Positions 5,008 through 61,094 of a stretch of DNA of 64,000 bases are shown here, piece after piece. The notes under the pieces are model-generated. The model was not told the origin of the DNA. It did no database searches and was given only the letters and a program-made list of their open reading frames with translations. Origin of the DNA: a virus (taxonomy: Duplodnaviria > Caudoviricetes). The stretch covers positions 5,123-69,122 of IMG/VR virus record IMGVR_UViG_2541047519_000001; one strand, 5' to 3'. Made by a program: the position numbers and the translations under genes. Positions within the stretch are counted from its first letter, which is position 1, and every line of letters begins with the position of its first letter.

Positions 5008-5387
5008 TGAGCACAGCATACAGAGTTTGGGACGGACAGCAGATGCATTATTGGGATGATGAAGGGATGAGCCTAACCATCAAAAATAACGGCGATTGGA
5101 CTTTGAAACGTTTATACAGAGATGTTTGGGTTCCCGTTGTAGACAGCACGAATAGAAACGCGGCTCTCATGTGGGGAACAGGGTTGAAGGATAAGAACGA
5201 AAAAACGATTTATGACAAGGATTCAATTTTAGATCATGGCACTGATACAAGATCAATTGTTAGGTACGACAATGAACAAGCTGGATTTTATCTCGATTTA
5301 GGAATCGGCGGCGCTTTTATGGTGGGCGATCTTGAAGTTATCGGAGACGCATATCAAAATCCTGAGTTATTGGAGGGGGCGGAGTGA
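5004..5387 (+). CDS. YopX-family protein
   Basis: YRVWD...LMWGTGLKDKNEKTIYDKD...LEVIGDAYQNPELL. Confidence 0.85.
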   Translation: MMSTAYRVWDGQQMHYWDDEGMSLTIKNNGDWTLKRLYRDVWVPVVDSTNRNAALMWGTGLKDKNEKTIYDKDSILDHGTDTRSIVRYDNEQAGFYLDLGIGGAFMVGDLEVIGDAYQNPELLEGAE

Positions 5388-35910: not shown

Positions 35911-35985
35911 TAAATCAATCTTGGTGAAATGAAACCCAAAAAGATGGTATATCAGGTGGAAAAACGGCATAAATAGGGGCAATGC

Positions 35986-36003
35986 ATGGGCGGCATGATG
36001 TAA
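35986..36003 (+). repeat. att core (prophage attR / island attL), copy of the groEL 3' end
   Basis: ATGGGCGGCATGATGTAA, identical to 61753-61770; encodes MGGMM*. Confidence 0.88.
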
Positions 36004-36116: not shown

Positions 36117-37281
36117 CTATAGGAGAAGGTCTTTCATCAGTTTGCTAAACTGTTGGGAGGCCTTTTCTTCCATATTGGAGGTCATATGGGCGTATATGTT
36201 CATTGTGGTATTGATATCCGTATGACCTAACCGCTGCTGGATTTCTTTAAGTCCCACCCCAGCTTCAATTAATAAAGAAGTGTGAGTATGTCTGAAGGAA
36301 TGGGGGGTGATATTTTTTTCTATCCCTGATTTATTCAGCAACCGTTTAAGCCTAGTTTCAATTACTTTTCTTAATTGCGGATGTCCATCATCCCGGGCGA
36401 ATATAAACCCATTATCTTTATAAATGAGCCTGTTTTTGAATTTAATCTCATTTTGCTTTACGATGCTTTTTTAATAAATTAACCAGGTGTTCATCAATCT
36501 TAATTGTTCGGACGGATCCCTTTGTTTTTGGAGTAAGTAGCTGGTAGCCCTCAAAGTTGTTATTTGGATTATATAAGGTTTTGGTAACCCTTAATGTTCC
36601 CTTTTTATGGTTAAAGTCAGTCCATTTTAAGGCTAGTAATTCTCCTATTCTTAGCCCCGAATATGAAAGGGTAGTAAAGACTTCTACATCCATTTCTAGC
36701 CCTTCAGATTGAGTTGTTTTCAGGAAGTGCGCAAGCTCTTCTTTCTCTAGGTATTTAATTTTTTCTTCTGCGCTTTCCAAATCCTCCACTTTAGTCTGCT
36801 GTTTTGGCAGTTTGAAATTTTCTGTAGGATTAATTTTCATTATCCCTAGCTCAACTGCTTGCCGGAATATCATGCGTCCGGTTGCCGCAATTCCATCCAT
36901 ATAATTTTTACTGTACTTTTCTGATAGATCCAGCATGCGGTCTTGATACATCTTTTTTGTAATTTGGCTGATTTTGAATGGTCCCCATACAGAAATAAAA
37001 TGTTTCACTTCCTTTTCTCTCGCCCGAACACTGCTTATTTTTACTCCGCTCCTACTGTACGTCTTTAACCAATCCTCTGCAAACTGCTCAAATGATAGTT
37101 TCGAGTCTTTAGCAAGAGTACCATTTTCTTTATCTAGTTCAATAATACGTGCTGCTGCTTGGGCTTCTTTCTTTGTTTTAAATCCACCTTTTGAAATTTC
37201 AAGTCGTTTTTTTGTTAGAGGATCTATCCCCAAGTAAACATGATAGCTCCATGTTTTTCCTCGTTGCTTGAATTTTGCCAT
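36117..37281 (-). pseudogene. Tyrosine integrase with a single-base frameshift near 36457
   Basis: Arm-binding N-term, RIGELLAL, HSFRH, LGH, catalytic Y; frame breaks at CGT AAA G CAA AAT GAG. Confidence 0.88.
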
Positions 37282-41971: not shown

Positions 41972-43891
41972 ATGCCCAAACGAAAAACACACGACCAATT
42001 TCTCCTGGAAATGAAAGATGCCTATGGAGATGAATACATGGTTCTAGGAACCTATAAAAATAACAGCACAAAAGTGCTGTGTCGTCATAACGATTGTGGA
42101 TATGAATGGGAAGTGAACCCGAATAACGTCTTAAGAAAAAAGAGTCGTTGCCCGCGATGCTCGAATGAAGAACAAGGAAAAAAGAAGAGAAAATCGCATG
42201 AAGCATTTCTTTTTGAAGTGAAAGAACAGGTACAAGATGAATATACCGTTCTAGGTCAATACTCAACGAACAAAACCCCCATAAAGATGAAGCATAACCT
42301 TTGCGGTCACGAGTATCTAGTTCATCCATCGAGTTTTATTTCGGGAACAAGATGCCCCAGCTGTTTTAGAACAGCGAAGAAAACGACAGAGCAGTTCATT
42401 CAAGAAGTATTTGACTTGGTGGGAGATGATTTTACGGTTTTAGGCGAGTATGTGGATAATCATACCCATCTCCTCTTGAGACACAATACATGTGGGTTTG
42501 AATGGGACATTACACCGAATGGTTTTCTCAGAAATCAGGGTTGTTTGCGATGTTCGGGAAGGATGAAAAAAACGACGAAACAATTCAAAACAGAAATGTT
42601 TGAGAAAGTAGGAAATGAATACAGCATCTTGGGAGAATACATTCATGCCAATGAAAATATTAAAATTAAACATCATACATGCGGAACAGAATGGGATGTC
42701 CGTCCATCCAACTTTTTAAATAAGGGCTCTAGATGTCCTGCCTGTTTCGGGACCACCATCAAAGATGATGATAATAATCGGATAAGCAAAAGAACGCATG
42801 ACATGTTCCTGCAAGAGGTTAATAATTTGGTCCAAGATGAGTATCTCGTTTTGGGTGAATACGTAGACCTCAGAACCAAAATTAGCATGAAGCATCAAGT
42901 TTGCGGTCACACCTGGGATGCGAATCCCGGTGATTTTCTTCATCAGCAGACGCGCTGTCCTGAATGTTTCGGAAGCAAAAAGAGAACGACGGAAGAATTC
43001 AAAGAGGAAGTCTTCCTGTTAGTTGGAGATGAATACAGCGTTTTGGATGAATATACAAGCACTGACACCAAACTTAAAATGAAACATGTTTCTTGTAGAA
43101 GAGAATACGAAGTGACTCCATATCATTTTCTTAGTGGTAAACGTTGTGTGAAATGCAGGGGGTTGATGAAAAAATCTACCAAGGAATTTAAAGAAGAGGT
43201 GTTCCGCCGATTTGGCCACGAATTTACCGTCATGGGCGAATATGTAAACAGTGGCACGCCTATCCCCATCAAACATGAAGTCTGCGGATATGAATGGGGG
43301 ACCTATTATCGCCATTTTCTCAAAAGTGGGAAATGCCCCAAATGCGTGGGGAAAGTCCGATTGCAACAAGAAGAGTTTGTCTCCATTGTAGAAGGTTTGA
43401 CAGGAGATGAATACACGGTGATGGGTGAATATAAAAATTCCAACACTAAAATTGAAATGAGGCATAATAAATGCGGTCATGTTTGGAAAGTATCACCCCC
43501 TAACTTTACTCACGGCAACAGTCGTTGTCCTAAATGTAATGAGTCAAAAGGAGAAAAGGTGATTTGGTCTTACTTAGTATCACTTGTTGTTAATTTTGAA
43601 CAGCAACATTGGTTTTCAGATTGTCGGGATAAAAACCCCTTGCCATTTGATTTCGCTGTCTTTAACGAAGAAAATGAGCTAATGGGGCTAATTGAATACG
43701 ATGGTCAGCAACACTTTGAGCCTATTAAGAATTGGGGCGGGGAACTTCGATTTAAAGAAGTGCAGCGTAGAGACGGAATCAAAAATGACTATTGCCAAAA
43801 AAATCACATTCCGCTTCTTCGTATCCCTTATTATGAGTTCAAAAACATTCCAACACTTTTAGATGAGTGGTTATCCCAAATTGGAAAGTAA
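41972..43891 (+). CDS. Eight tandem zinc-module repeats plus C-terminal Vsr/DUF559-like nuclease
   Basis: 8 repeats of about 65 aa: K.T...F..E....GDEY.VLGEY......HxxCG..W...P..FL....CxxC; C-term PFDFAV...LIEYDGQQH...LLRIPY. Confidence 0.85.
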   Translation: MPKRKTHDQFLLEMKDAYGDEYMVLGTYKNNSTKVLCRHNDCGYEWEVNPNNVLRKKSRCPRCSNEEQGKKKRKSHEAFLFEVKEQVQDEYTVLGQYSTNKTPIKMKHNLCGHEYLVHPSSFISGTRCPSCFRTAKKTTEQFIQEVFDLVGDDFTVLGEYVDNHTHLLLRHNTCGFEWDITPNGFLRNQGCLRCSGRMKKTTKQFKTEMFEKVGNEYSILGEYIHANENIKIKHHTCGTEWDVRPSNFLNKGSRCPACFGTTIKDDDNNRISKRTHDMFLQEVNNLVQDEYLVLGEYVDLRTKISMKHQVCGHTWDANPGDFLHQQTRCPECFGSKKRTTEEFKEEVFLLVGDEYSVLDEYTSTDTKLKMKHVSCRREYEVTPYHFLSGKRCVKCRGLMKKSTKEFKEEVFRRFGHEFTVMGEYVNSGTPIPIKHEVCGYEWGTYYRHFLKSGKCPKCVGKVRLQQEEFVSIVEGLTGDEYTVMGEYKNSNTKIEMRHNKCGHVWKVSPPNFTHGNSRCPKCNESKGEKVIWSYLVSLVVNFEQQHWFSDCRDKNPLPFDFAVFNEENELMGLIEYDGQQHFEPIKNWGGELRFKEVQRRDGIKNDYCQKNHIPLLRIPYYEFKNIPTLLDEWLSQIGK

Positions 43892-46750: not shown

Positions 46751-47362
46751 ATGAGTATTAGACATGTTTCGAATGCTGATAATGAGGGATGGTTACTTGT
46801 CAAGTTTTCAGGAAACAGTAACCCGGAAGCTCTACCTCAATACTTAAGAGTAGAATACATAAAGACTGAGGGGGGGCGTGATTATTTTAAGGTTATTGAA
46901 GGTGTACATGCAGGCAAAGAAGGAAGTGTAAAGCAAAAAGAAGGCGGTGGATCATATTTAATTGAGGGGGATCCAAAGCAGCCTGCAGCTAAGGTACACT
47001 TTGTCATAGGAAGTAAAAAATTATGGTATCAAAACGACGGGAGGTGGATTGGTCCTATAGATACTATGACCGATCCTGAAAATAAAGTTCCTGTCGGTAC
47101 GTACGATATTGAAATCCCAGATGCACCTCATAAGGTCCCAGATGAATATAAAGACAAATCGAGATTTGCAGGTACATGGTTTCGGATTGGTCATATAGGG
47201 GATCGCTACCTTCACCCAGGATCAGTATCAGCTGGTTGCGCTACAGTGACTGATATTCCCATATGGACAGATTTATATAATTACCTAATAAATCGTAGGA
47301 AAGATGATAAAAGTGTAGGCGAGATTTATGTTTTTGCAACGGATTCTGACCGCCCTCAATAG
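46751..47362 (+). CDS. Tlde1/DUF2778-like L,D-transpeptidase-fold protein
   Basis: YLHPGSVSAGCATV His/Cys motif; VPVGTYDI upstream; RBS AAGGAG; no signal peptide. Confidence 0.6.
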   Translation: MSIRHVSNADNEGWLLVKFSGNSNPEALPQYLRVEYIKTEGGRDYFKVIEGVHAGKEGSVKQKEGGGSYLIEGDPKQPAAKVHFVIGSKKLWYQNDGRWIGPIDTMTDPENKVPVGTYDIEIPDAPHKVPDEYKDKSRFAGTWFRIGHIGDRYLHPGSVSAGCATVTDIPIWTDLYNYLINRRKDDKSVGEIYVFATDSDRPQ

Positions 47363-47857
47363 ACAAGCATTACGTTTCGGGTTAGATAGCCAATTTACTT
47401 CGTAAGGTGCTTATATGTGTATCAGCAGGCTCGTAAATGCGGGCCTGCTTTTATTTGGAAATGTATCAACTTGCACTTTATGAAATAAGGAAATACTTTA
47501 TTTTCGTTAAACATGGTGAATTAACCTCCACAAGAGCGAGGAGAAGCGGAAACCCTCGGCAAAAGGAATCAGTTTCGAGAATCCTAATGAATACGGTAGT
47601 TTTCTTGGAGTTATATTTATTGCTCTTCTGTCAAGAAATACCGCCACAGCGTACATGTAGTCCATGTCAGCAATTGGCGGTGCCTTGTATTCGAGGGTGC
47701 TGCCTGCCTCTACTATTCTACATCGATTACGCTTAGCGTGTTTGCCTTGCTTATATAGGATAAAAAAGCCCGCTACAGAGTGAACTCCCAAACACCGGAA
47801 GAATAATTTATATAATTTTACAGTGTTTGGCAAAGATAGGAGTGTAATGTCAAAAAT

Positions 47858-50800
47858 ATGAACACGGACTTTGAGGTGAAAATGATGTCGGTTATCTTCG
47901 AATTATGCGCATTCGATGCCAAGGGGCGTCTTTATATTAGCAAGCCTGACGCGCCTGACCAAGGGTACATTGCTTATGTGCTTCCGAGGAAAATCCAGTC
48001 GCCTTTGATCGGTCTTGAGCAGGCGTTGCATCAATATAAAGGTACTTTTGTCTTCTCATTGACACCGCTTCCCGTCGCAACGGAATGGGATACGGTGAAA
48101 TTCATGAAGCTTTTACAAGCCGTCCTGCCCGTTCCACCGGCAAGAGGGTTCATGTGGCTCCACGATCCACTGGCAGTTACGGCCACTACCATATCCCGTA
48201 TGGAAATAAACGCATCCGGCAGACGGATCGCTTCATCATGCAGCATTCCCATCAACGGCAGACGCTGGCGTTTCATTCTACCTGAGGGGTTAGGGCTTGC
48301 ACTCACAGACGATCACTCGATCGATATGAGCGCGGGCAGGGAAACGCCAATCCATTTCGCCGGCCGTCAGGCGCCTGCGGTGAAGGGCATACGTAAAGTA
48401 ACGATTCCTTTTACAGGTCCGTACCGGGGTTGTATGCAGATCAATGCCTTGTATATCAAAGCCAGTTCCTTGGCAGGGAGACATAAGCTTCGAACCGGTT
48501 TTCAATTTTGCCACCCTGACGTGGCGGAGAAGGGGGTGGTTAGTTCCGGCTGGTATCCGCTACTCGAACAAAATGGAAGCGAATATATCGGTTTTGTGGC
48601 GAGTTTCGATCCGTGTGCAATGGCACGCGCAGCGCGATCAATTGGAGAACCGGGCAATATTAGAACACATCTGCGTTTTACGGGACATAATTGTGATGGG
48701 AGACGTACGCTTTTGAATACCGCATACATAACAAAGCTGGGCTATCCGGTCCAAATGACGCCAATCGTTGGAAGCGGAGACGACGCCATGCTTGTATTTC
48801 ACGAAAATCCGGGAGATAGAGGGCGCTCAACCGGTCTCATGCTCTCACCGGTAGGGAAGTTTGCACTGTCGGTTCAGGACGGCATCGGGGGATACGGGCA
48901 TGATTTGCTGTGCGGGTTATCGGGTACCGAATCTCTTTCCTTTCAGTCGGGCGATTTTATTCATTATTCGCCTTTCAATTCGGCTTATGCCCGCAGCTAT
49001 CCGTTTCAACAAACGACAACAAGGAACTATCCTGCGGAGGAGATTGAGCAACTGCTTGGGAACGACTATCTGACCTCGTATGCCGTCCTGAAGCCGATGA
49101 TTCCGAGTCCCGCTCCTAATACAGTCCGTTACTGTTCGCAGTCGGAGGGAGCGGTTCTATATGGCAGCGGAAGGGTCACCGAGGAATTTAACAAGATGTT
49201 CCTCGATTACGAGCAAACATGCGTTGCAGTGCGGGAAAACAGTCCGCCGTTCCCACTTGTTCCGTACGGGGGCGTTCAAGAGGAAGCCGGACAACATCAT
49301 TTTACAGAAATTGACTATATGGATTTCGAACAGAAGGTGATAACCCTTCTCCGGCGACATCTGTTGGAAGTGGAACATGAAGAGGCCTTCAAGTTAAATG
49401 GCGTCGATTTTGCCGATATGGAATATCAGGCGACAACGTCGGCAGGCCAGTTGGTCGCCCTGAACGGCAGCCGTTATCTCAAGGTTCTACTTGGACAGTC
49501 CGCAAAACCCGATACGCCGGACTTGAGCTTTGTCCGTCTGGATGAGGAGTTGCAGAAGGTGTTGCAGACGAATCAATTGTTTCTGGTCGCTTCCTCTAAG
49601 CGGCATCTTGGTGCTTCTCCGGCGGAAGGGGACGGACCGGGCTTTAACAACCTCTTGGATATTGAAAATTGGATGTTTAGCATCGAGACGGGAACGCGCA
49701 ATCAATACATGGATTATCGGGATATTATTCTGATTAAAGGGCGTAAAGATACGGAGATGTGTATCCGAGACCTTGTCGCAAAGCCCGAAATGTGGACGCA
49801 GACGAACGATTTCTCCGTATCGGCGCTGGACTGGCCGAACGGGCAAAGCCTGGATGCATCTGTGGAGCTAGCTGGATTATCCGCATGGCTCGTGAATTAT
49901 ATCGAGGATGCATGTAACCAGCCCGATCCGGCATTCGAGAACTTCAGGTCGATCGTCAACAGCAAGAACTGGAACGGCATGCTTATTCTGAAAGCGACAC
50001 TGGCCAACATTCCGGAGGAGATTGGGATGCTTGCCGCCGGGATGGACCCGCAATACATGTTTGCCCATCACCTGGGGGCAGGTTCAACCCCGGTCAAAAG
50101 GGAATTGAACGCGGAGGAAAATAAAGCAAGCGCTGTTTTCGGGCTCATTCACTATGTTCATCCTCACTATACCCCGCCTGAAAATGATCCGTACTATACC
50201 ATCGACCCGGATCCAGGCGACTTTGATTTCAAAGTACTGTATATGAAGGTCAGTCTGTTCCAAGGCACCGTAGCCGACTTTTATTGCTTGTCGCAATTGA
50301 CGGTCAACAAAATGTTCGACCAGCCCGTCGCCGGGATCAAAGGGATGCCGAAAGGAACGCACACGATTCTAATTGAAGGCAACGAGGAGCGGCAAAATGG
50401 CCTGTTATCCTACCGGTTTCAATTGAAGCATGACTATGTGTATCATTTTTCCAGCAGTTTACTGGATCGGGTGGAGTTGATCGGGATTAGTCTGAGCAAT
50501 GGACAAAGCAGCCTAAACCTTGACCAAAAAGCCGCCACATCGTATCAGTTTAACCTGTCGGGTTACATGGCCTTTCATGTGTGTAGGCAAAAGTCGGGAA
50601 CAGAACGCTTTTTCGATGTGATGTCTTTCGGAGCGGAACCGCCGGCGAACTCGGGGAGGGGAATTCGCCTTCCCGAGCCCGAAGCGGCAAGGCGTATCGG
50701 GCTCAGTTTCTCCGCACTATCGATTACGATGAAGGTGCCTGATGTGACGCAAGCGGAAAACTCGTTCGAAGCGGGTCCGACGCGTGTGTTCGAAGTGGAT

Positions 50801-51352
50801 CCGACGCGCATGGTGTTCGACCCAACCGTCAGCACTATCCGCCAAAACAGCCTTTTCCGCTCATTTCCGCTTGAACTGCAGGGCTTAATTGTCGGCGAAG
50901 GGGATATCGGGAGCCTCGGTTATTTACCGGTCGGCGTTGTCCCGCAATTGACGGGAGTAGGCAAACGGCGCTGGCACGGGTTACGGATGCGTCTAAATCT
51001 TGGCGGACTCGGCGCTTTGGCCGGCAATGCGGGAATCGATGCGGAAATGCTGCTAGCATGGAGCCCGGATGATGGGAACGACATGCAATCGTACAACGTA
51101 TCGGTAGGGCTTAAACTTCCTTCCGTTCTCAAGCGGTTTGAACTGCAGGGTGTGATGGAACTGAAGTTCGAACATCTGTTTCTGCGATTTGACGAGAAGC
51201 AGGGATTCTCGTTGGAGATGAATCCGGTTGCGCTCCGGCTTCTTGGTCTCAAGCAGTTACCTACAAGCGGCGCGATATCCATGAAGCTGTTCGGGAAGGA
51301 TGGCGAGAAGAAGGTAGGCTGGTATGGCCTATATCATACAGAAGGGAGCTAG
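47858..51352 (+). CDS. Giant hypothetical protein A (about 1160 aa)
   Basis: Long open ORF; better RBS GAGGTG before ATG 47882; no motif recognised. Confidence 0.85.
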   Translation: MNTDFEVKMMSVIFELCAFDAKGRLYISKPDAPDQGYIAYVLPRKIQSPLIGLEQALHQYKGTFVFSLTPLPVATEWDTVKFMKLLQAVLPVPPARGFMWLHDPLAVTATTISRMEINASGRRIASSCSIPINGRRWRFILPEGLGLALTDDHSIDMSAGRETPIHFAGRQAPAVKGIRKVTIPFTGPYRGCMQINALYIKASSLAGRHKLRTGFQFCHPDVAEKGVVSSGWYPLLEQNGSEYIGFVASFDPCAMARAARSIGEPGNIRTHLRFTGHNCDGRRTLLNTAYITKLGYPVQMTPIVGSGDDAMLVFHENPGDRGRSTGLMLSPVGKFALSVQDGIGGYGHDLLCGLSGTESLSFQSGDFIHYSPFNSAYARSYPFQQTTTRNYPAEEIEQLLGNDYLTSYAVLKPMIPSPAPNTVRYCSQSEGAVLYGSGRVTEEFNKMFLDYEQTCVAVRENSPPFPLVPYGGVQEEAGQHHFTEIDYMDFEQKVITLLRRHLLEVEHEEAFKLNGVDFADMEYQATTSAGQLVALNGSRYLKVLLGQSAKPDTPDLSFVRLDEELQKVLQTNQLFLVASSKRHLGASPAEGDGPGFNNLLDIENWMFSIETGTRNQYMDYRDIILIKGRKDTEMCIRDLVAKPEMWTQTNDFSVSALDWPNGQSLDASVELAGLSAWLVNYIEDACNQPDPAFENFRSIVNSKNWNGMLILKATLANIPEEIGMLAAGMDPQYMFAHHLGAGSTPVKRELNAEENKASAVFGLIHYVHPHYTPPENDPYYTIDPDPGDFDFKVLYMKVSLFQGTVADFYCLSQLTVNKMFDQPVAGIKGMPKGTHTILIEGNEERQNGLLSYRFQLKHDYVYHFSSSLLDRVELIGISLSNGQSSLNLDQKAATSYQFNLSGYMAFHVCRQKSGTERFFDVMSFGAEPPANSGRGIRLPEPEAARRIGLSFSALSITMKVPDVTQAENSFEAGPTRVFEVDPTRMVFDPTVSTIRQNSLFRSFPLELQGLIVGEGDIGSLGYLPVGVVPQLTGVGKRRWHGLRMRLNLGGLGALAGNAGIDAEMLLAWSPDDGNDMQSYNVSVGLKLPSVLKRFELQGVMELKFEHLFLRFDEKQGFSLEMNPVALRLLGLKQLPTSGAISMKLFGKDGEKKVGWYGLYHTEGS

Positions 51353-51357
51353 GCGAA

Positions 51358-54300
51358 GTGAGCGATTTAAGACAATTATACATGGATCTTGACCGAGCAC
51401 TTCTGCCGGGGGGCAGGATGGAGCTTCTTTCGGCACTCGGGGGGACGGGAATTATTGTGGACACCCTGACCAGGTGCGTCGGCGACAACGAACTTCAGTT
51501 GCAGAACGCTACGGTCGTCTTCAATTCGTCTCAGACGCAGATTGTCGTCGAGGGGATCGAGAGAGATTTTGGATTCGGACAAACCACGGCGAATTTGGTC
51601 TTCACTGTTTCTTCAGAAGACCGTTATCATTTGGCATTGACGCTTAAGCCCGTTCAACAGGACGAAATATGGCGGTGGAGAGGATTGCCCTGGATCGCCT
51701 TTCGTCTGGTTGCACTGGAGCTCGCTGTTCAGGACCGGGACGAGCAGGCCGTATCTGGTAAACTTACTGTCTCAGCCAAAGTTGGTACTCAGTGGGTTAC
51801 CTTTTCAGCAAATTATCCATTTAAGGACCTTAATTCCTTCAATACGGAAGGCGTTATTCCCAATCTGGGAATGTCCGATTTATCTCCGTTCGCCGGTAGC
51901 GCCAATTTGCTGCAGCTGTTGCCCAATATGCTTAGAACGTTCGTTTTCACAACGGAGAATATTCGCTTCAATGTGGAGGGTAACGCTGAGAAACTAAAAT
52001 CGGTCCATGCTAGATTGCGCTTGAATGAACAATGGACTTTGTTTCCTGAAGTCGATGTGAAATCTTTATTGATTGACATCGAGGTAAACGAACGATCGTC
52101 AATTACCGATCCCGAAGTGAAGATTTCGTTTGAGGGTGATGTCGTACACAAAGATAAAGTCATCTTAAAGCTGAGCGGAACGCATGATCAGCTCAAGCTC
52201 AAGCATGCAGGCAAGTTGCCCCTCTCTGAATTTCTGGAACTGTTTGTTCCTGTTACGATGCCGGATATCGGTCTGGGTGATGTACAGGCGTTGGATGCAG
52301 TAATCTGCTTTAAGCCGGATTTCGTATATTCGCTGGAAGCCAAGATCGGCAAGAACGAGCCTCCACCGCTGCTGGCCGTGACAGGCATTCAGCTTGAAGA
52401 TATTACGATATGTGTGAATGGCGATTCGGGCAAACAGTTAGTTGTGCTGAAAGCCAAAGCGGACTTTTACGGGTGTGAACTTAAACTTGAAGCGAACTAT
52501 TCAGGTTGGAAAAATCAAGTGGCATTCAGCGATGGCCAGTGGATATTTACCGGAACGTTAACGGATCCGGAGGAAATACTGACGAAAATCGTCACGCAGC
52601 TTGATCTGCCAATCAAACTCCCAGACTTGAACGGAATCCATGAGCTCAAGGTTGTTTATAAGCCGAAAGCAACCACGGGCTTCGATGAATGGTGCATAAT
52701 CGGATATACCGAAGAATGGAAAAGTCCGATCGATGATAGCACCCGCGTTCATGCCGAGCTAAAGCTAGAGCAGAAGGTTGTCGGTAATCCGCCTTCCGAG
52801 CCTCAAGTTTCATTCAGCATGTGCGCTGTCATGAATCTCGGGAGCGACGATCTGCGAATATGCTACGATGGGATAGGCTACACCTTATACTGGAACGATT
52901 TCGAAGGTAGGTATTTACCGGAAGAGGGAAAAGCGGAAATGAAGCTTGGCAATCAGTGGACCATCGGCAACATTGTGGAGAGCGCTGTTTCCTGGGTAAC
53001 GGGCATCCGTTTCGGCCTAACACCGCCGTGGAATGTTCTGAATGACATAGAATTGGGCGAAGGATCGAATTTGATTTTTTATTTTGAGAACAACGAAAAA
53101 TTAAACCGTATTGAATTTTCTAAAGACCTGAACTACGATTTTGGTTTTGGCAATATTGAAAAGTTGACATTGACGTATATTTGGGAAGATAGCCGCGTCA
53201 TGATTAAGCTTGTCGGCGAAATCACAGACTGGTTTGATGAGCCTTTAGAGTGGGATGTAGCGGACCCGTCCAAGACGCCCGCGCTGCCCGGAATGGGCAA
53301 TCAATTGTTTAACTTGAAGTTGCTTGCGCTCGGTCAGCATATCGGGATAAAGGATACCGTCAAGAACGTTAAGGATGCGATTGATAAAATACATGGCTTT
53401 CCTGATTCCCCGCCGCTTAACGACAATTCTTCTGGAACGGCTGTCTTCGATCCGAATGCAGGCTGGCTCATTGCCGCGGATTTCGACGTTCTGAAGACAG
53501 GTAGTGATTATCTGTTTTCGCTCGGCCTCATCTTTAACGATCCCAATCTGTACGGGCTGCATCTGTCCATGGGCGATCAGACCGGGGGACTATTCAGCGG
53601 ACTCGAATTCGAAATTCTGTATCAAAAGATCAACGACTCGATAGGCGTCTATCAGGCGGAAATCCAGTTGCCGGACAGCCTGCGCTATCTCGAATTCGGC
53701 GCTTATTCCATCACGCTCCCGAATTTCTCGGTCGCCATTTATACGAACGGCGATTTCAAACTGGACATCGGGTTCCCATGGGATTTGGATTTCTCGCGTT
53801 CATTCACGATCCAGACAATCGTTCCGCCGGGGATTCCGGCAATCGGTTCTGCAGGATTCTACATCAATAAGCTGTCCGGCGAAACTTCAGATCGCGTACC
53901 TGTCTGTGACAACGGGCGTTTCGGAGAGGTGCTGGAGTTCGGTTTCGGCATGAGGCTTGGCATCGGCAAAGAGATCGTGAAAGGTCCGCTGAAAGCAGGA
54001 TTCAGCGTGACGATCATCGGCATTTTGGAAGGCGTGCTGGCCAAGTGGATTCCTTGGGATAAGGAAGTTCATCACACTGCGCTCGCAGAATCGTCCGGCT
54101 TCAATCTCCAGGGAGAATATTTTTTCCAATTAATCGGAACCGTCGGCATTCAAGGGAAATTGTTCGGCTCTGTCGATCTGTCGCTTATCAAAGCGGACGT
54201 CGATATAACCGTAACCGTGGCGACACAGCTTACATATGAATCCTACCGGGACATCGAGTTCGCGATTATTGCGGATGTCCGCGTGTCCGTCAAAGTCAAG

Positions 54301-56202
54301 TTTGGTTCTGGCCGGTTCGCAGTAAAAATCAAAATCCATTATGAAGAAAGCGTTAAAGAAAAGTTCGTCGTGGAGGCTTCCGGTAAGGCGCCTTGGTGTT
54401 CTGACCCGCCTGACTCGCGCTTGATGCCAGAACATCGTTTAGCCCCGGAGCGGGGTGACGTCCCGTGTAGGCTGAATGATGTTGTAGATGTCTCTTGTTC
54501 GGATGATACTGACGATAAACGCTCTCCGATAAAGATGAACTGGCGTAACTTACTTAAGAGCGAGCATCCTGTAAAGGCTCGGTTGACGCCGGTGCTTACG
54601 GTCAACACCGAACAGTTTGCAAATGGAGACTACGCGGCCCATCCCGCCTATGTGCTGCTGCTTGCGATGGACACAATGGGCGAGATGGATGGAACGGGAG
54701 AAGAACGTTCGGAGCTAAGCGACTTCGAAATTATTTGCAGACAGCTGTTCCGCTGGTTAATCGCAGCCGCCGGGAAAGGGAGTTGTCGTGAGGACGAACT
54801 CGATACAACGACCGTAACCCGTACGCAGTTGTGTAGGATCAAGCACTATTTAACGGGCGCACAGTCGGAAAGCCGAGACGGCCAAGACGTTGTTGAAAAG
54901 GATTGGACGCCGATCCCGGTTGCGGAGATAGAGCGTTTTATGGAGCAACATTGCAACCTGACGATTTATATGCCCCCGGTGAGAGAAGATCCGCAGGAGG
55001 GAGAAGAACCGGAACTGCCTATAACAACCTTCTTCCCGATGGTGCCATATCTGCGACTGACTGTACCAGACCCGCTCGATCCGGAAAGTATCTATATTCG
55101 GCACCGTTTTCATGATGTCGCCTGTGTAGACAACGTCTATTTGTCCGATCTTCAGCGAAGATTCATGCAGATGGCTGTTCAAGTCGGACAGGAGGAAGCA
55201 GCGGAAGATGAACACCTCGGACGATCATCCGGCCGCGCCTGCAAGCACTCCATAGCGGAGTTTGTCTTTGCCGACTATTTCCTGCTACTTTGCCGTCAGA
55301 TGACTGAGACTGCCCTACATGCACTCGACAATACGAAACATCTGCTAATAGAAAAACAATCGATCCATAATATCGTCTGTATGTATGCGAAGCATAAACC
55401 AGAAAATTTTACCGTGACTGACCTGCTCCATGCGAACCGGGATGTTCCGTTAAATTTAGAGCTTACGGCCTTTACAGGTCTAAAACATAAGGTACGGGCT
55501 GAGGACACCTTGAACGCCATATTTAAGCAGTATGTATATGTGAAGGATTGGTTCAACACATCACTCCCGGGGCAGACCGATCTTCTTCAAATACGTGCAA
55601 ACATAACGTGCGAACTGCCAAACGGCGATCGGGTATCGTACGATATTCGGAGCGGCGATACCTTGCTTACCTTGATGACACAATTCGGCTATACCGAATG
55701 GGAACTGTTTAAATCGAAGTGCAGCCTTTTCGACATGACGGCACTCCGTCCTGATGCCCAAATCTCGCTGCCTGACTTTTCATATCAACCACAGAGCGGT
55801 TACACTCTTCAAATGATTAGCGGTCAATCAGGGCTGAGCTTCATACAGCTTGCAGATAGCACAGCAAACCTAGACAGCAAGGCGTTGTTCGCGGCGGAAG
55901 AGAAAAGTCTATTAATCGGGAAGTTGATTTCGCTTGAAACTGGAAGCTTGTTCGAACAAATGCGCAATGCCCGTGCTTTACGCAATCTATCGGGCATGGT
56001 TTCGCGTTTCTTCCTGCACGGACTGCGTCTCCCGCTGAAAAGAATTAGGATGCAGGAGCAGTTGCTGGACGAAGAAGGATACCACGGCTTGTACCAATTA
56101 ACCGGACAGCAGTTTGACGTGCCGGCTTTTAAGGATGAGTTATCGTTTACTATCGACAATCCGGGCGAACTATCTTGGGTCACACTTATGAAGGAGGAAT
56201 AA
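51358..56202 (+). CDS. Giant hypothetical protein B (1614 aa), beta-rich with C-terminal LysM-like repeats
   Basis: RBS GAAGGGAG; KHKVRAEDTLNAI, SYDIRSGDTLLTL and YQPQSGYTLQMI segments. Confidence 0.85.
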   Translation: MSDLRQLYMDLDRALLPGGRMELLSALGGTGIIVDTLTRCVGDNELQLQNATVVFNSSQTQIVVEGIERDFGFGQTTANLVFTVSSEDRYHLALTLKPVQQDEIWRWRGLPWIAFRLVALELAVQDRDEQAVSGKLTVSAKVGTQWVTFSANYPFKDLNSFNTEGVIPNLGMSDLSPFAGSANLLQLLPNMLRTFVFTTENIRFNVEGNAEKLKSVHARLRLNEQWTLFPEVDVKSLLIDIEVNERSSITDPEVKISFEGDVVHKDKVILKLSGTHDQLKLKHAGKLPLSEFLELFVPVTMPDIGLGDVQALDAVICFKPDFVYSLEAKIGKNEPPPLLAVTGIQLEDITICVNGDSGKQLVVLKAKADFYGCELKLEANYSGWKNQVAFSDGQWIFTGTLTDPEEILTKIVTQLDLPIKLPDLNGIHELKVVYKPKATTGFDEWCIIGYTEEWKSPIDDSTRVHAELKLEQKVVGNPPSEPQVSFSMCAVMNLGSDDLRICYDGIGYTLYWNDFEGRYLPEEGKAEMKLGNQWTIGNIVESAVSWVTGIRFGLTPPWNVLNDIELGEGSNLIFYFENNEKLNRIEFSKDLNYDFGFGNIEKLTLTYIWEDSRVMIKLVGEITDWFDEPLEWDVADPSKTPALPGMGNQLFNLKLLALGQHIGIKDTVKNVKDAIDKIHGFPDSPPLNDNSSGTAVFDPNAGWLIAADFDVLKTGSDYLFSLGLIFNDPNLYGLHLSMGDQTGGLFSGLEFEILYQKINDSIGVYQAEIQLPDSLRYLEFGAYSITLPNFSVAIYTNGDFKLDIGFPWDLDFSRSFTIQTIVPPGIPAIGSAGFYINKLSGETSDRVPVCDNGRFGEVLEFGFGMRLGIGKEIVKGPLKAGFSVTIIGILEGVLAKWIPWDKEVHHTALAESSGFNLQGEYFFQLIGTVGIQGKLFGSVDLSLIKADVDITVTVATQLTYESYRDIEFAIIADVRVSVKVKFGSGRFAVKIKIHYEESVKEKFVVEASGKAPWCSDPPDSRLMPEHRLAPERGDVPCRLNDVVDVSCSDDTDDKRSPIKMNWRNLLKSEHPVKARLTPVLTVNTEQFANGDYAAHPAYVLLLAMDTMGEMDGTGEERSELSDFEIICRQLFRWLIAAAGKGSCREDELDTTTVTRTQLCRIKHYLTGAQSESRDGQDVVEKDWTPIPVAEIERFMEQHCNLTIYMPPVREDPQEGEEPELPITTFFPMVPYLRLTVPDPLDPESIYIRHRFHDVACVDNVYLSDLQRRFMQMAVQVGQEEAAEDEHLGRSSGRACKHSIAEFVFADYFLLLCRQMTETALHALDNTKHLLIEKQSIHNIVCMYAKHKPENFTVTDLLHANRDVPLNLELTAFTGLKHKVRAEDTLNAIFKQYVYVKDWFNTSLPGQTDLLQIRANITCELPNGDRVSYDIRSGDTLLTLMTQFGYTEWELFKSKCSLFDMTALRPDAQISLPDFSYQPQSGYTLQMISGQSGLSFIQLADSTANLDSKALFAAEEKSLLIGKLISLETGSLFEQMRNARALRNLSGMVSRFFLHGLRLPLKRIRMQEQLLDEEGYHGLYQLTGQQFDVPAFKDELSFTIDNPGELSWVTLMKEE

Positions 56203-56207
56203 AAGTA

Positions 56208-59200
56208 ATGGGTTCGTTGAATGTTCAGCTTAATGCGAAGGAAATCATCAAAATCAAGAAAGTCGCCGAGTATATCGGACAAGGAACATTCAGCCCGCCT
56301 GCAAACGTTACGGTCGGAGAAATGGTACAAGAACTGCCGATGAAGTATACGGCAGTGCAGGGCACCGCTTGGCAGGGGGCACAGAAAGATACAAATGAGA
56401 TGTTGACGCCTTTGCAAATTTGGGATATGCCGGCCGATTTTTCGAATTTGACGGCTAAAGCGGTCTTGACCGATCCTTCTGAGTCTGAAGAAACAGTCTA
56501 TTACCCTAAAGCTTTCCCAATGCGAATGTTGAAAAAAAGTGATACAGATCAGTATGAGGAAAAGCAGATTTTCGATTTTGCATGGGCAACCAAGCTGAAT
56601 GTCACCATCAGACGGATTGACGACGGCGACAACAGCGTCTTTAACAAATATACGTACGAGCTCGTCGGAGTTCGGGAATCGGATATGATTTTGCTGGAAC
56701 GGCTGATGCGGCATGTAAAGATGAATCCGTCGGATCTTCCTGTAAAAGTGAAGTTGTTATATAAAGACGAAGCGAACCGTAATGAACTGACCTGCTCGGA
56801 AAACCAGTTGTTGTTCATCCAGAAAGCGAACTGCAGCATCGAGACGAACCCGTCGGATTTGGGCTTGTCAAGGACGGAGGAAACGCTTGATGAAAGGCCT
56901 GACATGGATCTGTTCATTCGCCGTCTATGGGAAGGGAGCGTAACCCGTTCGGGCGGGTTCTTCCTGTTTCACTACGATATCGACAACAAATCCGGTATTC
57001 CCGAGCGGCTGTTCGAAGTTCGGGACGAGGCCCAGGTCAGGCTGCTGTTTCTCTGGCCTGATTACGAGGAGGCAAAGGAGGAATTGCCGGAATTGCGCCC
57101 GTATATCAATACGGTTGTAACCGACAGAATCCCAGAGGATGAAGAACACGCCTCCATTTATGTTAAATTGCTCACCTATACCATTGATCGGCCAAGCGAC
57201 GGGCATCCTGCACTTGAGACGCTGGCGAGCATTTACTTCACCGATGCATCCGTCATTGCAGTAACGAACCGTCTACTGCAACTGACTCCAGGCGTGCCAT
57301 TGCAAATAAGGAACGGTACATACATGGTAAGAGAAAGCCAGCCGGACAATTCTTCCACCATAGCGGAGCATTTCAAAATCAAGGAAGAAGACCTGTTGAC
57401 CACTAACCCTGGCTTGCGACAAGGGGAGAAGCTTCATGTATCCATGGCTGTTCGGTTGCCCGAGCTTGTGGTCGTGACGACCCCGGAGCAGAATATGGAG
57501 CAGATTTCGAAACAGTTTGGTATACCCGTGGCCGCGCTCGGCGCTGATAACCGTCATATTTCGGGCTTGTTCGCGCCTGGCGGCACCATACGACTTGTGA
57601 CGGGAAACCGAAACCGGATCGGCGTTACGCCTCCCGGAGCGGTGGAGGTCAGAGCCGTACGACCGGCTCCTGTTGAATGGTCCGACGGGGATGCGTTTAT
57701 GGCCGAACACTATCTGGCGAGCATGTTTCAAATGCTACAGCCGCGGCTCTGCCGCAATTTCGATTTTCGAGCGAGTAATCCCGGTTTACCGGCTGGACCG
57801 AAGGTGAGCGAAACGGAAGGCTTCGTCGATTTTCATACTGCCGATCCGTCTGCTGAGTGGTGGTATAGCCGTTCCATTCCGTATTCCATGCATGCGGCGG
57901 CAACTAACTACAACGCGCCTTCTTCTCCAGTATCGAATCCGTACGAAGGAGCAGGAAAGATGCTCCAGCTTGATTTGCAGTGGTTGGATTTGTTCGGCAA
58001 TCGCATCCAATCTAACCTTGACGATTACTCCGCAAACAGCGGAACCGCAAATCGGATGCCCACGATTGTCGGCTACTCTGATACGCTGCTCGGCCTTTCG
58101 AGGTGGCCTTTCGTTTCGGTTGATTATGTCTTAGAGCCAGATGCAGGAAATCGTTCTCAAGTTCTGCTGTGCATACTTCTTAAATTTGATGCATCCTCCC
58201 TCCGAATTAATAAGGGAACCCACGAAAAAACGGTTCGAAAGAGAGCGTTGGAAGCGCTGGCGACTTACCGCTCCATCTTGAATCAGATGATGCCGCTTGC
58301 TAGCGGAGGTGAGCTTGGCTTCCAATGGCGTACAAGTCTTCTTCCGGCTGGACCGAGATATCTATCCGAACCGAATAAACGGTTAATGCTGAAGATGCTA
58401 AGACGCATATGGGAGTGGTTATCGAACCTTGCCTGCCATCCAGATAAATTCAATGATCCTGATATTGCCTATACTTTGAATGAACCGATCGTTCGAAGGG
58501 AGATCAACAAATCGAATTTGTTCGAGCTTACCGTGGATGTGCTACTGACAAGACCGCTTGATGCCGTTAGCCCGTTATTCCGCTCGTCGAGACATGTCTT
58601 TGAATCTTCCACGCGCATTCTTCCCCGCAGAATCGCTGAACCCCGAGATAAAGGGAAGCCGTCCCTGCGTCAGTTTGCGATTATGGCGGAGCGGGCTCTA
58701 TGTCAGGAGAACCGGTATTTCTTTAAGCTGGCCGTCGGCTCCGACCGGAACCGGGTCGTGCATGCCCGCACCGAGCAGCCGGTATGGCTCGTCCGATTCG
58801 CATCGAAGGGTAGTAACGAAGGGCTGCATTACGACATACCCAAACTGGATAAATCCAAGCTGGCTATCTATGCCCCGAAGCCGATGATCAACCGCTCGGA
58901 ACCGTTCGAGTATAGGCAGACGTGGTGCTACAGGTACAGATCCGACGGATCCGACGAGTCCGGTTTCTACGAAAATCCAGAAGCGGGCATGGTGCAGAAA
59001 AACCGCGAGAGCATGGAAAAGTGGGCGCAGAACTACCTCGCTTCGGTTGACCGAATGCTGTCCCCTCGAAATTGCTCAGCAATGGGTGTGATCCGTAAGC
59101 TTACACAACAAGATCATACTATAGCTTTGCAAGAGCTCAAGAAGAAGCTGGCGAAGGTTGTCTCAGGTTTGCTAGACTATGTTTACCGAGACACCCCTCC

Positions 59201-61094: not shown

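Follow-up and report, generated by a model that had tools for sequence, protein, structure and literature searches.

Giant, β-rich proteins without signal peptides that are co-encoded and move horizontally are known from the Tc (ABC) toxins of Photorhabdus, Yersinia, and Serratia; Tc complexes leave the cell by routes of the lysis type, and parts directed at chitin are present in some of them. Phage tails, tailocins, and extracellular contractile injection systems (eCIS) are large signal-less assemblies with LysM parts as well, often linked to prophages, and signal-less LysM proteins occur in particles that are assembled in the cytoplasm and released by lysis, e.g., the phage P2 tail protein X. 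LysM in general binds polymers of N-acetylglucosamine (GlcNAc) such as peptidoglycan or chitin, and in intimin/invasin (type Ve) one chain combines a barrel with LysM. Here we analyzed a stretch of 64,000 nucleotides (referred to as the window), positions 5,123 to 69,122 of the IMG/VR provirus record IMGVR_UViG_2541047519_000001, in which three adjacent genes, A, B, and C, encode about 4,400 residues that share features with each of these systems. By sequence comparison, the A-B-C operon belongs to a very large family that crosses phyla and represents its split form, found in Firmicutes, with a predicted porin-like barrel followed by LysM modules, and we tentatively read it as a conflict weapon that would be built in the cytoplasm, released by lysis, dock on a cell wall, and form a pore.

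Like LytE, Ecp6, and YaaH, proteins B and C contain, by the evidence of family profiles, tandem LysM modules (PF01476) of about 45 residues in strand-helix-helix-strand order; however, LysM accounts for less than 8% of the 4,400 residues in A-B-C, is degenerate, and comes without an export signal. The barrel model of B resembles the barrels of porins, Omp85/TpsB proteins, and ushers (Z 8.6–13.6), but A-B-C has neither a Sec signal nor sequence similarity to outer-membrane barrels, and the predicted strands of B have about double the length required to span a bilayer. The host side does not fit such barrels either, as the nearest relatives are named Bacillus cereus, Priestia, and Paenibacillus; these genera are monoderms and have neither an outer membrane nor the β-barrel assembly machinery (BAM), and the host of A-B-C appears to be a monoderm too. 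While B joins barrel and LysM in one chain as intimin does, LysM precedes the barrel in intimin and comes after it in B. Unlike Tc toxins, A-B-C has no RHS/YD repeats, no TcA, TcB, or TcC domains, and no hypervariable toxin end; unlike phage tails, tailocins, and eCIS, it has no sheath, tube, baseplate, or ATPase genes; and unlike polymorphic toxins (Zhang et al. 2012), it has neither a variable C-terminal toxin domain nor an adjacent immunity gene.

The operon consists of three genes:

47858..51352, plus strand: gene A, intact open reading frame of 1164 aa with an ATG start
51358..56202, plus strand: gene B, intact open reading frame of 1614 aa with a GTG start
56208..61094, plus strand: gene C, intact open reading frame of 1628 aa counted from its ATG

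Orthologues of A are annotated 6–18 residues shorter (1158 and 1146 aa), and an alternative TTG start 33 nt upstream of the ATG of C would give a protein of 1639 aa. The spacers between A and B and between B and C measure exactly 5 nt each, and ribosome-binding sites precede B (GGGAG) and C (AAGGAGG), which confirms the three intact reading frames, short gaps, and good ribosome-binding sites described in an earlier note on this DNA. The same note had judged the genes to be richer in GC than their flanks, and counting bore this out: GC content was 0.49–0.52 and GC at third codon positions (GC3) 0.55–0.57 in A, B, and C, compared to 0.31–0.42 and 0.23–0.41, respectively, in the neighboring genes. 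A check for relaxed selection found the opposite. Compared with the Priestia orthologues (87–90% identical), the ratio of non-synonymous to synonymous substitution rates (dN/dS) was 0.18 for A, 0.21 for B, and 0.26 for C, and all three genes are under purifying selection.

Searches with A, B, and C against Pfam-A (hmmscan, E ≤ 1), NCBIfam, and PADLOC-DB 2.0 (E ≤ 1) returned no family above threshold, and nothing significant was found in PHROGs. The PDB gave no match in phmmer searches with A, B, and C or with the A profile, searches of the ESM Atlas with B and C returned nothing, A had no tblastn match among 50,697 phage records, and a fold search of BFVD with the model of A had no row at E ≤ 0.001. 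The failure of the earlier note to place the proteins in any characterized system therefore holds for Pfam, NCBIfam, PADLOC, PHROGs, and the PDB. The kinship with DUF6603 and AsmA-type proteins that it had brought up found no support: DUF6603 (PF20248) was absent from the Pfam-A scan of A, B, and C at E ≤ 1, and the Pfam models of AsmA, TamB, DUF490, and chorein did not match any of the three. As it had stated, signal peptides, transmembrane helices, Walker motifs, and RHS/YD repeats are lacking. The highest 19-residue Kyte-Doolittle mean in A, B, and C was 1.55, i.e., no stretch was of transmembrane grade, a motif scan of the three proteins found no Walker A, YD..GR, or HExxH motif, and the translations showed no signal-like N-terminus when inspected by eye (no predictor was run). 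No description of the A-B-C family was found in the literature, and the giant LysM proteins discussed in a passage of the lipocone paper (PMC12419801) are other proteins.

A word-index search detected 72 homologues of A, and an exhaustive search with the A profile retrieved 1,921 representatives of 50%-identity clusters at E ≤ 1e-3 (1,373 at E ≤ 1e-30). The A family is nearly constant in length, about 1100–1260 aa, and spans at least ten phyla. For B 45 homologues were found, and for C nine Firmicutes homologues of similar length. A pattern scan with one genome per species confirmed 240 loci in organisms that include Bacteroidota, Alpha-, Beta-, and Gammaproteobacteria, Acidobacteriota, Chloroflexota, Actinomycetota, Cyanobacteria, Planctomycetota, and Firmicutes. 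The three proteins are thus not confined to this one island but belong to a family that crosses phyla. Nine plasmids carry a homologue, including plasmids of Mycetohabitans (pBRH02 of Mycetohabitans rhizoxinica), Burkholderia, Paenibacillus, Azospirillum, and Nostoc, and all these homologues are annotated as "hypothetical" or "LysM domain-containing"; at DNA level, megablast against plasmids gave no match. A complete A-enzyme-giant operon (L017) was also seen on a 160-kb contig (JAXGJB010000001.1) binned as a metagenome-assembled genome of Methanothrix, an archaeon, which is due either to mis-binning or to transfer into an archaeon.

Outside Firmicutes, BLAST showed B (from about residue 500) and C to form one giant chain of 2,600–4,100 aa, with B in front and C at the rear, a fusion found in 30 or more giants and in most phyla, and one protein (P0260, 3422 aa) contains A, the B core, and C in a single chain. 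Because of these B+C and A+B+C fusions in other bacteria, the trio is expected to act as one unit. They are strong evidence, at sequence level, that A, B, and C are pieces of one physical unit of ~4,400 residues, and they support the single large complex put forward earlier. The usual order outside Firmicutes is one or two small β-rich proteins, A, an enzyme of about 450–490 aa, and the giant, and the A-(enzyme)-giant operon is kept across many phyla in the best 80 of the 240 loci. The Firmicutes loci retain nothing but A-B-C, and their genomic surroundings are unrelated to each other; C is not followed by a small gene in the window or in the Firmicutes loci inspected. In Bacillus mexicanus (L013, 8596–9597) a gene of the DndB/DpdB family (DGQHR; Pfam DndB 2e-24) lies directly before A-B-C. 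Internal paralogy was rejected, as hhalign gave a probability of 0.1% for A vs. B and for A vs. C, and B and C have only the LysM region in common.

In many loci, small β-rich proteins (110–180 aa) of several unrelated families are encoded directly upstream of A. They often form paralogous pairs, some have a signal peptide or a lipobox, and they are absent from the Firmicutes form. Examples, among others, are:

L001, 9116-9998: small upstream proteins
L003, 9094-9973: small upstream proteins
L023, 8675-9407: small upstream proteins
L038, 8508-9915: small upstream proteins

A conserved upstream accessory protein of ~790 aa was considered and rejected as a coincidence of size among unrelated proteins, namely a histidine kinase, a molybdo-oxidoreductase, a catalase-peroxidase, a patatin, a STAND NTPase, and a collagen-repeat protein.

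The enzyme between A and the giant was EEP-like in 28 and of MBL fold in 10 of 41 cases. The EEP-like enzymes have no signal peptide and retain their catalytic residues, including the C-terminal SDH (motif M[AT]RILYWNI...PDIFVVVE...SDH); their closest solved relatives are sphingomyelinase C of Bacillus cereus (E 0.003) and DNase I, both weak. The MBL-fold enzymes, with examples from Bacteroidota, mostly carry a signal peptide. Two unrelated phosphodiesterase folds are thus found at one slot (L020, L029, L045, L052, L016, L028, L090, and others). An interchangeable slot with an intact EEP active site would suit a Tc-like delivery device, in which the giants form a shell that carries the phosphodiesterase into target cells, and the protein sizes and the multi-component layout recall TcA/TcB/TcC. 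Foldseek listed weak rows to TcdB2-TccC3, but the TM-scores to Tc cocoons (6sup, 4o9x, and 4igl; models of A and of B 480–1614) were 0.04–0.06, and neither A, B, and C nor 19 giants of other phyla, in which LysM is the sole Pfam domain, contain RHS/YD repeats or Tc Pfam domains. This reading is further weakened because the Firmicutes form, the window included, has no slot enzyme, and we consider it very unlikely. The EEP and MBL profiles found nothing inside A, B, or C or in 7 Firmicutes homologues of B, and the idea that the N-terminus of B might be the missing slot enzyme was rejected on the same grounds.

Structures were predicted with AlphaFold for A and for residues 480–1614 of B. The model of A is β-rich, with a predicted local distance difference test score (pLDDT) of 83.7 and a predicted TM-score (pTM) of 0.72. 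Foldseek vs. the PDB returned only triple-propeller proteins for A (TM about 0.06); a wide VIA-align comparison reached at best Z 5.2, to small barrels over residues 787–990, and a further PDB comparison stayed under Z 5. The modeled A therefore seems to match no known fold convincingly, and we do not claim a new fold for residues 1–700, because this part was barely covered by the fold tests. The model of B (pLDDT 77) is dominated by one element:

53290..54384, plus strand: predicted wide antiparallel β-barrel, most conserved block of the family (B residues 645–1009)

Here the model is consistent with a closed antiparallel barrel of at least 12 strands; its strands are 17–23 residues long, with a block pLDDT mostly of 83–95 and two loop blocks in the 50s, and most of the invariant columns of the alignment of the B core (A3) fall within it. 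In a wide VIA-align comparison of the B model with 48,161 chains, 69 reached Z ≥ 8, and the best 50 of these 69 were all outer-membrane barrels, with Z from 13.6 to 8.6. OccAB1 was the top match (Z 13.6, root mean square deviation 5.3, 243 residues aligned), and the others included CymA (13.2), maltoporin (12.9), BcsC, AlgE, BamA, FhaC, TamA, and FimD. We therefore predict residues 645–1009 of B to be a porin-like barrel, in line with the β-tube suggested in the earlier note. The strands have one hydrophobic face and one charged or Gly-rich face. Over the whole of B, 5.2% of the 11-residue windows exceeded the threshold for β-amphipathicity vs. 1.3% in shuffled sequences (z = 6.9). The amphipathic strands noted earlier in the first ~1000 residues of B are thus real, but they lie in two zones, about 100–500 and 700–1000, instead of one continuous run; A and C have none.

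The strands of the predicted barrel are hydrophobic over their full length on one face, beyond what a bilayer needs, and this unusually tall face keeps alive a further reading, in which A-B-C would be an envelope conduit or building machine: a tube with a hydrophobic lumen, anchored by LysM, that moves a lipid or a hydrophobic polymer at the wall of the producer. The second amphipathic zone of B (100–500), the small lipoprotein-like partners in other phyla, the nearness of the slot enzyme to sphingomyelinase C, and the many homologous loci that are chromosomal and surrounded by housekeeping genes would all fit such a machine. However, A, B, and C have no signal peptide or membrane anchor that would place them in the envelope, no AsmA-, TamB-, or chorein-type model of Pfam matched, and the fold matches of B 480–1614 were closed barrels and not open grooves. 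The operon moreover lies on a mobile island here and is accessory: an A homologue was present in only 2 of 91 species genomes of one Bacillus family, which argues against a core envelope function. Taken together, we regard the conduit as improbable.

The second recognizable element of B and C is LysM:

55333..55920, plus strand: three, perhaps four, degenerate LysM modules in B (residues about 1326–1521)
57192..57617, plus strand: two LysM modules in C (residues about 329–470)

The A3 profile of the B core matched LytE (6.9e-10), Ecp6 (4.1e-9), and YaaH (7.9e-6) at profile positions 868–1017, the profile of C (A4) matched LysM structures at E 0.0025, and hhalign aligned C 329–470 with B 1329–1525 at 97% probability. 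In the B model the region consists of repeated strand-helix-helix-strand units. The modules of the window itself stayed below the Pfam threshold (13.6 bits for C 440–463 at a cut-off of 20.9, and none in B), and orthologues exceeded it at equivalent positions (P0009 and P0010 for B, P0123 and P0125 for C). The LysM-like repeats that had been described near the C-terminus of B and within the first third of C are thereby recovered by the family profiles, and at this profile level five LysM modules appear to follow the barrel region. By analogy with other LysM proteins they would bind GlcNAc polymers, i.e., peptidoglycan or chitin, as had been proposed. Beyond the modules, the C-terminus of C is conserved to its end in 12 homologues, among which invariant columns extend as far as residue 1600.

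The operon lies between two copies of a direct repeat:

35981..36003, no strand assigned: left copy of a 23-nt direct repeat, candidate att site of the operon-bearing island
61748..61770, no strand assigned: right copy of the 23-nt direct repeat, candidate att site

The two copies agree in 22 of 23 bases and have unrelated flanks. They bound an island of 25.8 kb, which adjoins a prophage and of which A-B-C makes up 51%, matching the earlier estimate of one half. The foreign composition, the bounding repeats, and the rarity of A homologues in the Bacillus family (2 of 91 species) also support its claim of horizontal acquisition.

Since A, B, and C have no signal peptide or membrane helix, we infer that their assembly would be cytoplasmic, as it is for phage tails and tailocins. 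The position of the operon on a satellite-like island beside a prophage makes release by lysis plausible, and until the producer cell lyses the complex would not get to the place where it acts. LysM would then attach it to a cell wall, and the barrel would open a channel in the membrane beneath. The LysM modules, together with the signal peptides that the small partners and MBL-fold enzymes carry elsewhere, suggest that the complex acts on the wall or outside it. This conflict weapon is the reading that we rank first, though only tentatively, and its later steps (lysis release, docking, pore formation, and the kind of target) are the more conjectural ones. Several observations weigh against it. 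The barrel is a prediction, and the pTM of the whole modeled piece was 0.50. Its hydrophobic face is ~9 alternate residues long and thus taller than a bilayer core; in the model it may line the lumen or pack against other domains instead of facing lipid. The LysM modules of B and C in the window are degenerate, and neither in the window nor in the inspected loci did we find a gene for lysis, secretion, or immunity linked to the operon. That a single-chain, signal-less porin-like barrel would insert without Sec and BAM, in monoderms and diderms alike and after docking by LysM, seems unlikely to us. An explanation of some other kind is a tentative possibility as well.

The remaining genes around the operon bear on another reading, namely abortive infection or anti-phage defense. 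In the window we found:

36448-37281, minus strand: truncated tyrosine integrase, a 277-aa open reading frame that retains just the beginning of the catalytic domain
41972-43891, plus strand: CapR/DUF4379 treble-clef zinc-finger protein with a DUF2726 nuclease-like end, 639 aa
61843-62088, minus strand: second integrase remnant, an 81-aa C-terminal piece just right of the right repeat
62831-64000, plus strand: ABC-3C CTD7-like gene running off the window, weak match (E 3.8e-5, below gathering score)

Left of the operon there are also an HTH_17 gene, a Prim-Pol/DUF927 primase, a helix-turn-helix (HTH) gene, and a serine recombinase, and the CapR/DUF4379 gene contains six 63-nt DNA repeats at 42233–43465. 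As each copy of the direct repeat has a minus-strand piece of integrase on its right, the arrangement looks like two tandem islands that share an attachment site and whose integrases have both decayed. In a defense system, the complex would stay in the cytoplasm until it senses infection or wall damage; the barrel would then perforate the membrane of the producer, which would die before phages are released. Such a role would suit the cargo of an island that resembles phage-inducible chromosomal islands (integrase, Prim-Pol/DUF927, HTH) beside a prophage, and the operon sits between two genes of conflict type, the CapR/DUF4379-DUF2726 gene and the ABC-3C CTD7-like gene. Firmicutes orthologues were found next to DndB/DpdB (L013), HNH and MazE (L004), and an HD protein (L006), the cassette is self-contained, patchy in distribution, and horizontally moving, and A, B, and C have no export signals. 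However, no PADLOC model matched, the Firmicutes form lacks the usual sensor and effector domains, such as an NTPase or a nuclease, and the partners in other phyla have signal peptides. The ligands of LysM are also not known to be present in the cytoplasm. Among the 114 nearest upstream neighbors at 57 loci outside the clade, only ~5 strongly matched defense models, while the rest were housekeeping or regulatory genes. We therefore regard a defense role as rather doubtful, although it ranks next after the pore-forming weapon.

Two hairpins and one further gene concern the borders of the transcription unit:

46751-47362, plus strand: 203-aa gene with an HPGSVSAGC motif, called Tlde1-like in the earlier note
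47424..47449, plus strand: terminator-like hairpin of 11 pairs followed by a T-run, between the 203-aa gene and A
61139..61166, plus strand: 12-bp hairpin GTTTGTGTCGTG / CACGACACAAAC, read from the sequence, 45 nt past the stop of C and without a clear T-run

The hairpin at 47424–47449 closes the 203-aa gene and is the upstream edge of the A-B-C transcription unit; the trio is therefore a unit of its own, and the 203-aa gene was rejected as a member of the operon. This gene had no sequence match in Pfam or the PDB, so the Tlde1-like label gained no support, and among the Firmicutes loci inspected it is kept upstream of A only in a near-identical Priestia island. A 99-aa open reading frame at 47437–47736 overlaps the terminator and looks spurious. 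A consensus terminator scan called no terminator at 61139–61166.

The operon was present in four RNA-seq runs, with no base differences listed; these data consist of contigs from one study, in which carry-over of DNA is possible, and are taken as a weak hint only. In three runs the contigs over B and C stopped at 61311–61371, i.e., 220–280 nt past C, the next contigs started at 62823–62969, i.e., at the ABC-3C gene, and there was little coverage between 61.4 and 62.8 kb in runs X2, X4, and X6. Run X1 covered the whole region at even depth and may reflect DNA carry-over. The contig ends thus weakly hint at a transcript that terminates after C, and A, B, and C are probably transcribed. In run X4 the contig of the ABC-3C-like gene reached a depth of 79, far above that of the operon contigs.

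This analysis adds the enzyme-less split form of Firmicutes, a protein in which A, B, and C are fused, a porin-like model for the core, dN/dS values, and a weak hint from RNA. The family comprises 1,921 clusters at 50% identity and occupies 10–13 kb per copy, and it has no name, Pfam model, or solved relative. Its predicted core is a type of barrel that is thought to need an outer membrane and BAM, and yet it occurs here signal-less in Bacillus-type monoderms. If the model is right, either barrel architecture is put to soluble use or the barrel inserts itself, and both would be new. A self-inserting, LysM-docked barrel would, if true, mean that pore formation or translocation can follow a new principle, one that differs from those of oligomeric β-pore toxins and Tc toxins. 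The Firmicutes A-B-C operon is the minimal form of the family, as it has just three genes and lacks both the accessory enzyme and the small partners. It also occurs in a group that is amenable to genetics, and it therefore offers the best entry for testing what the family does.

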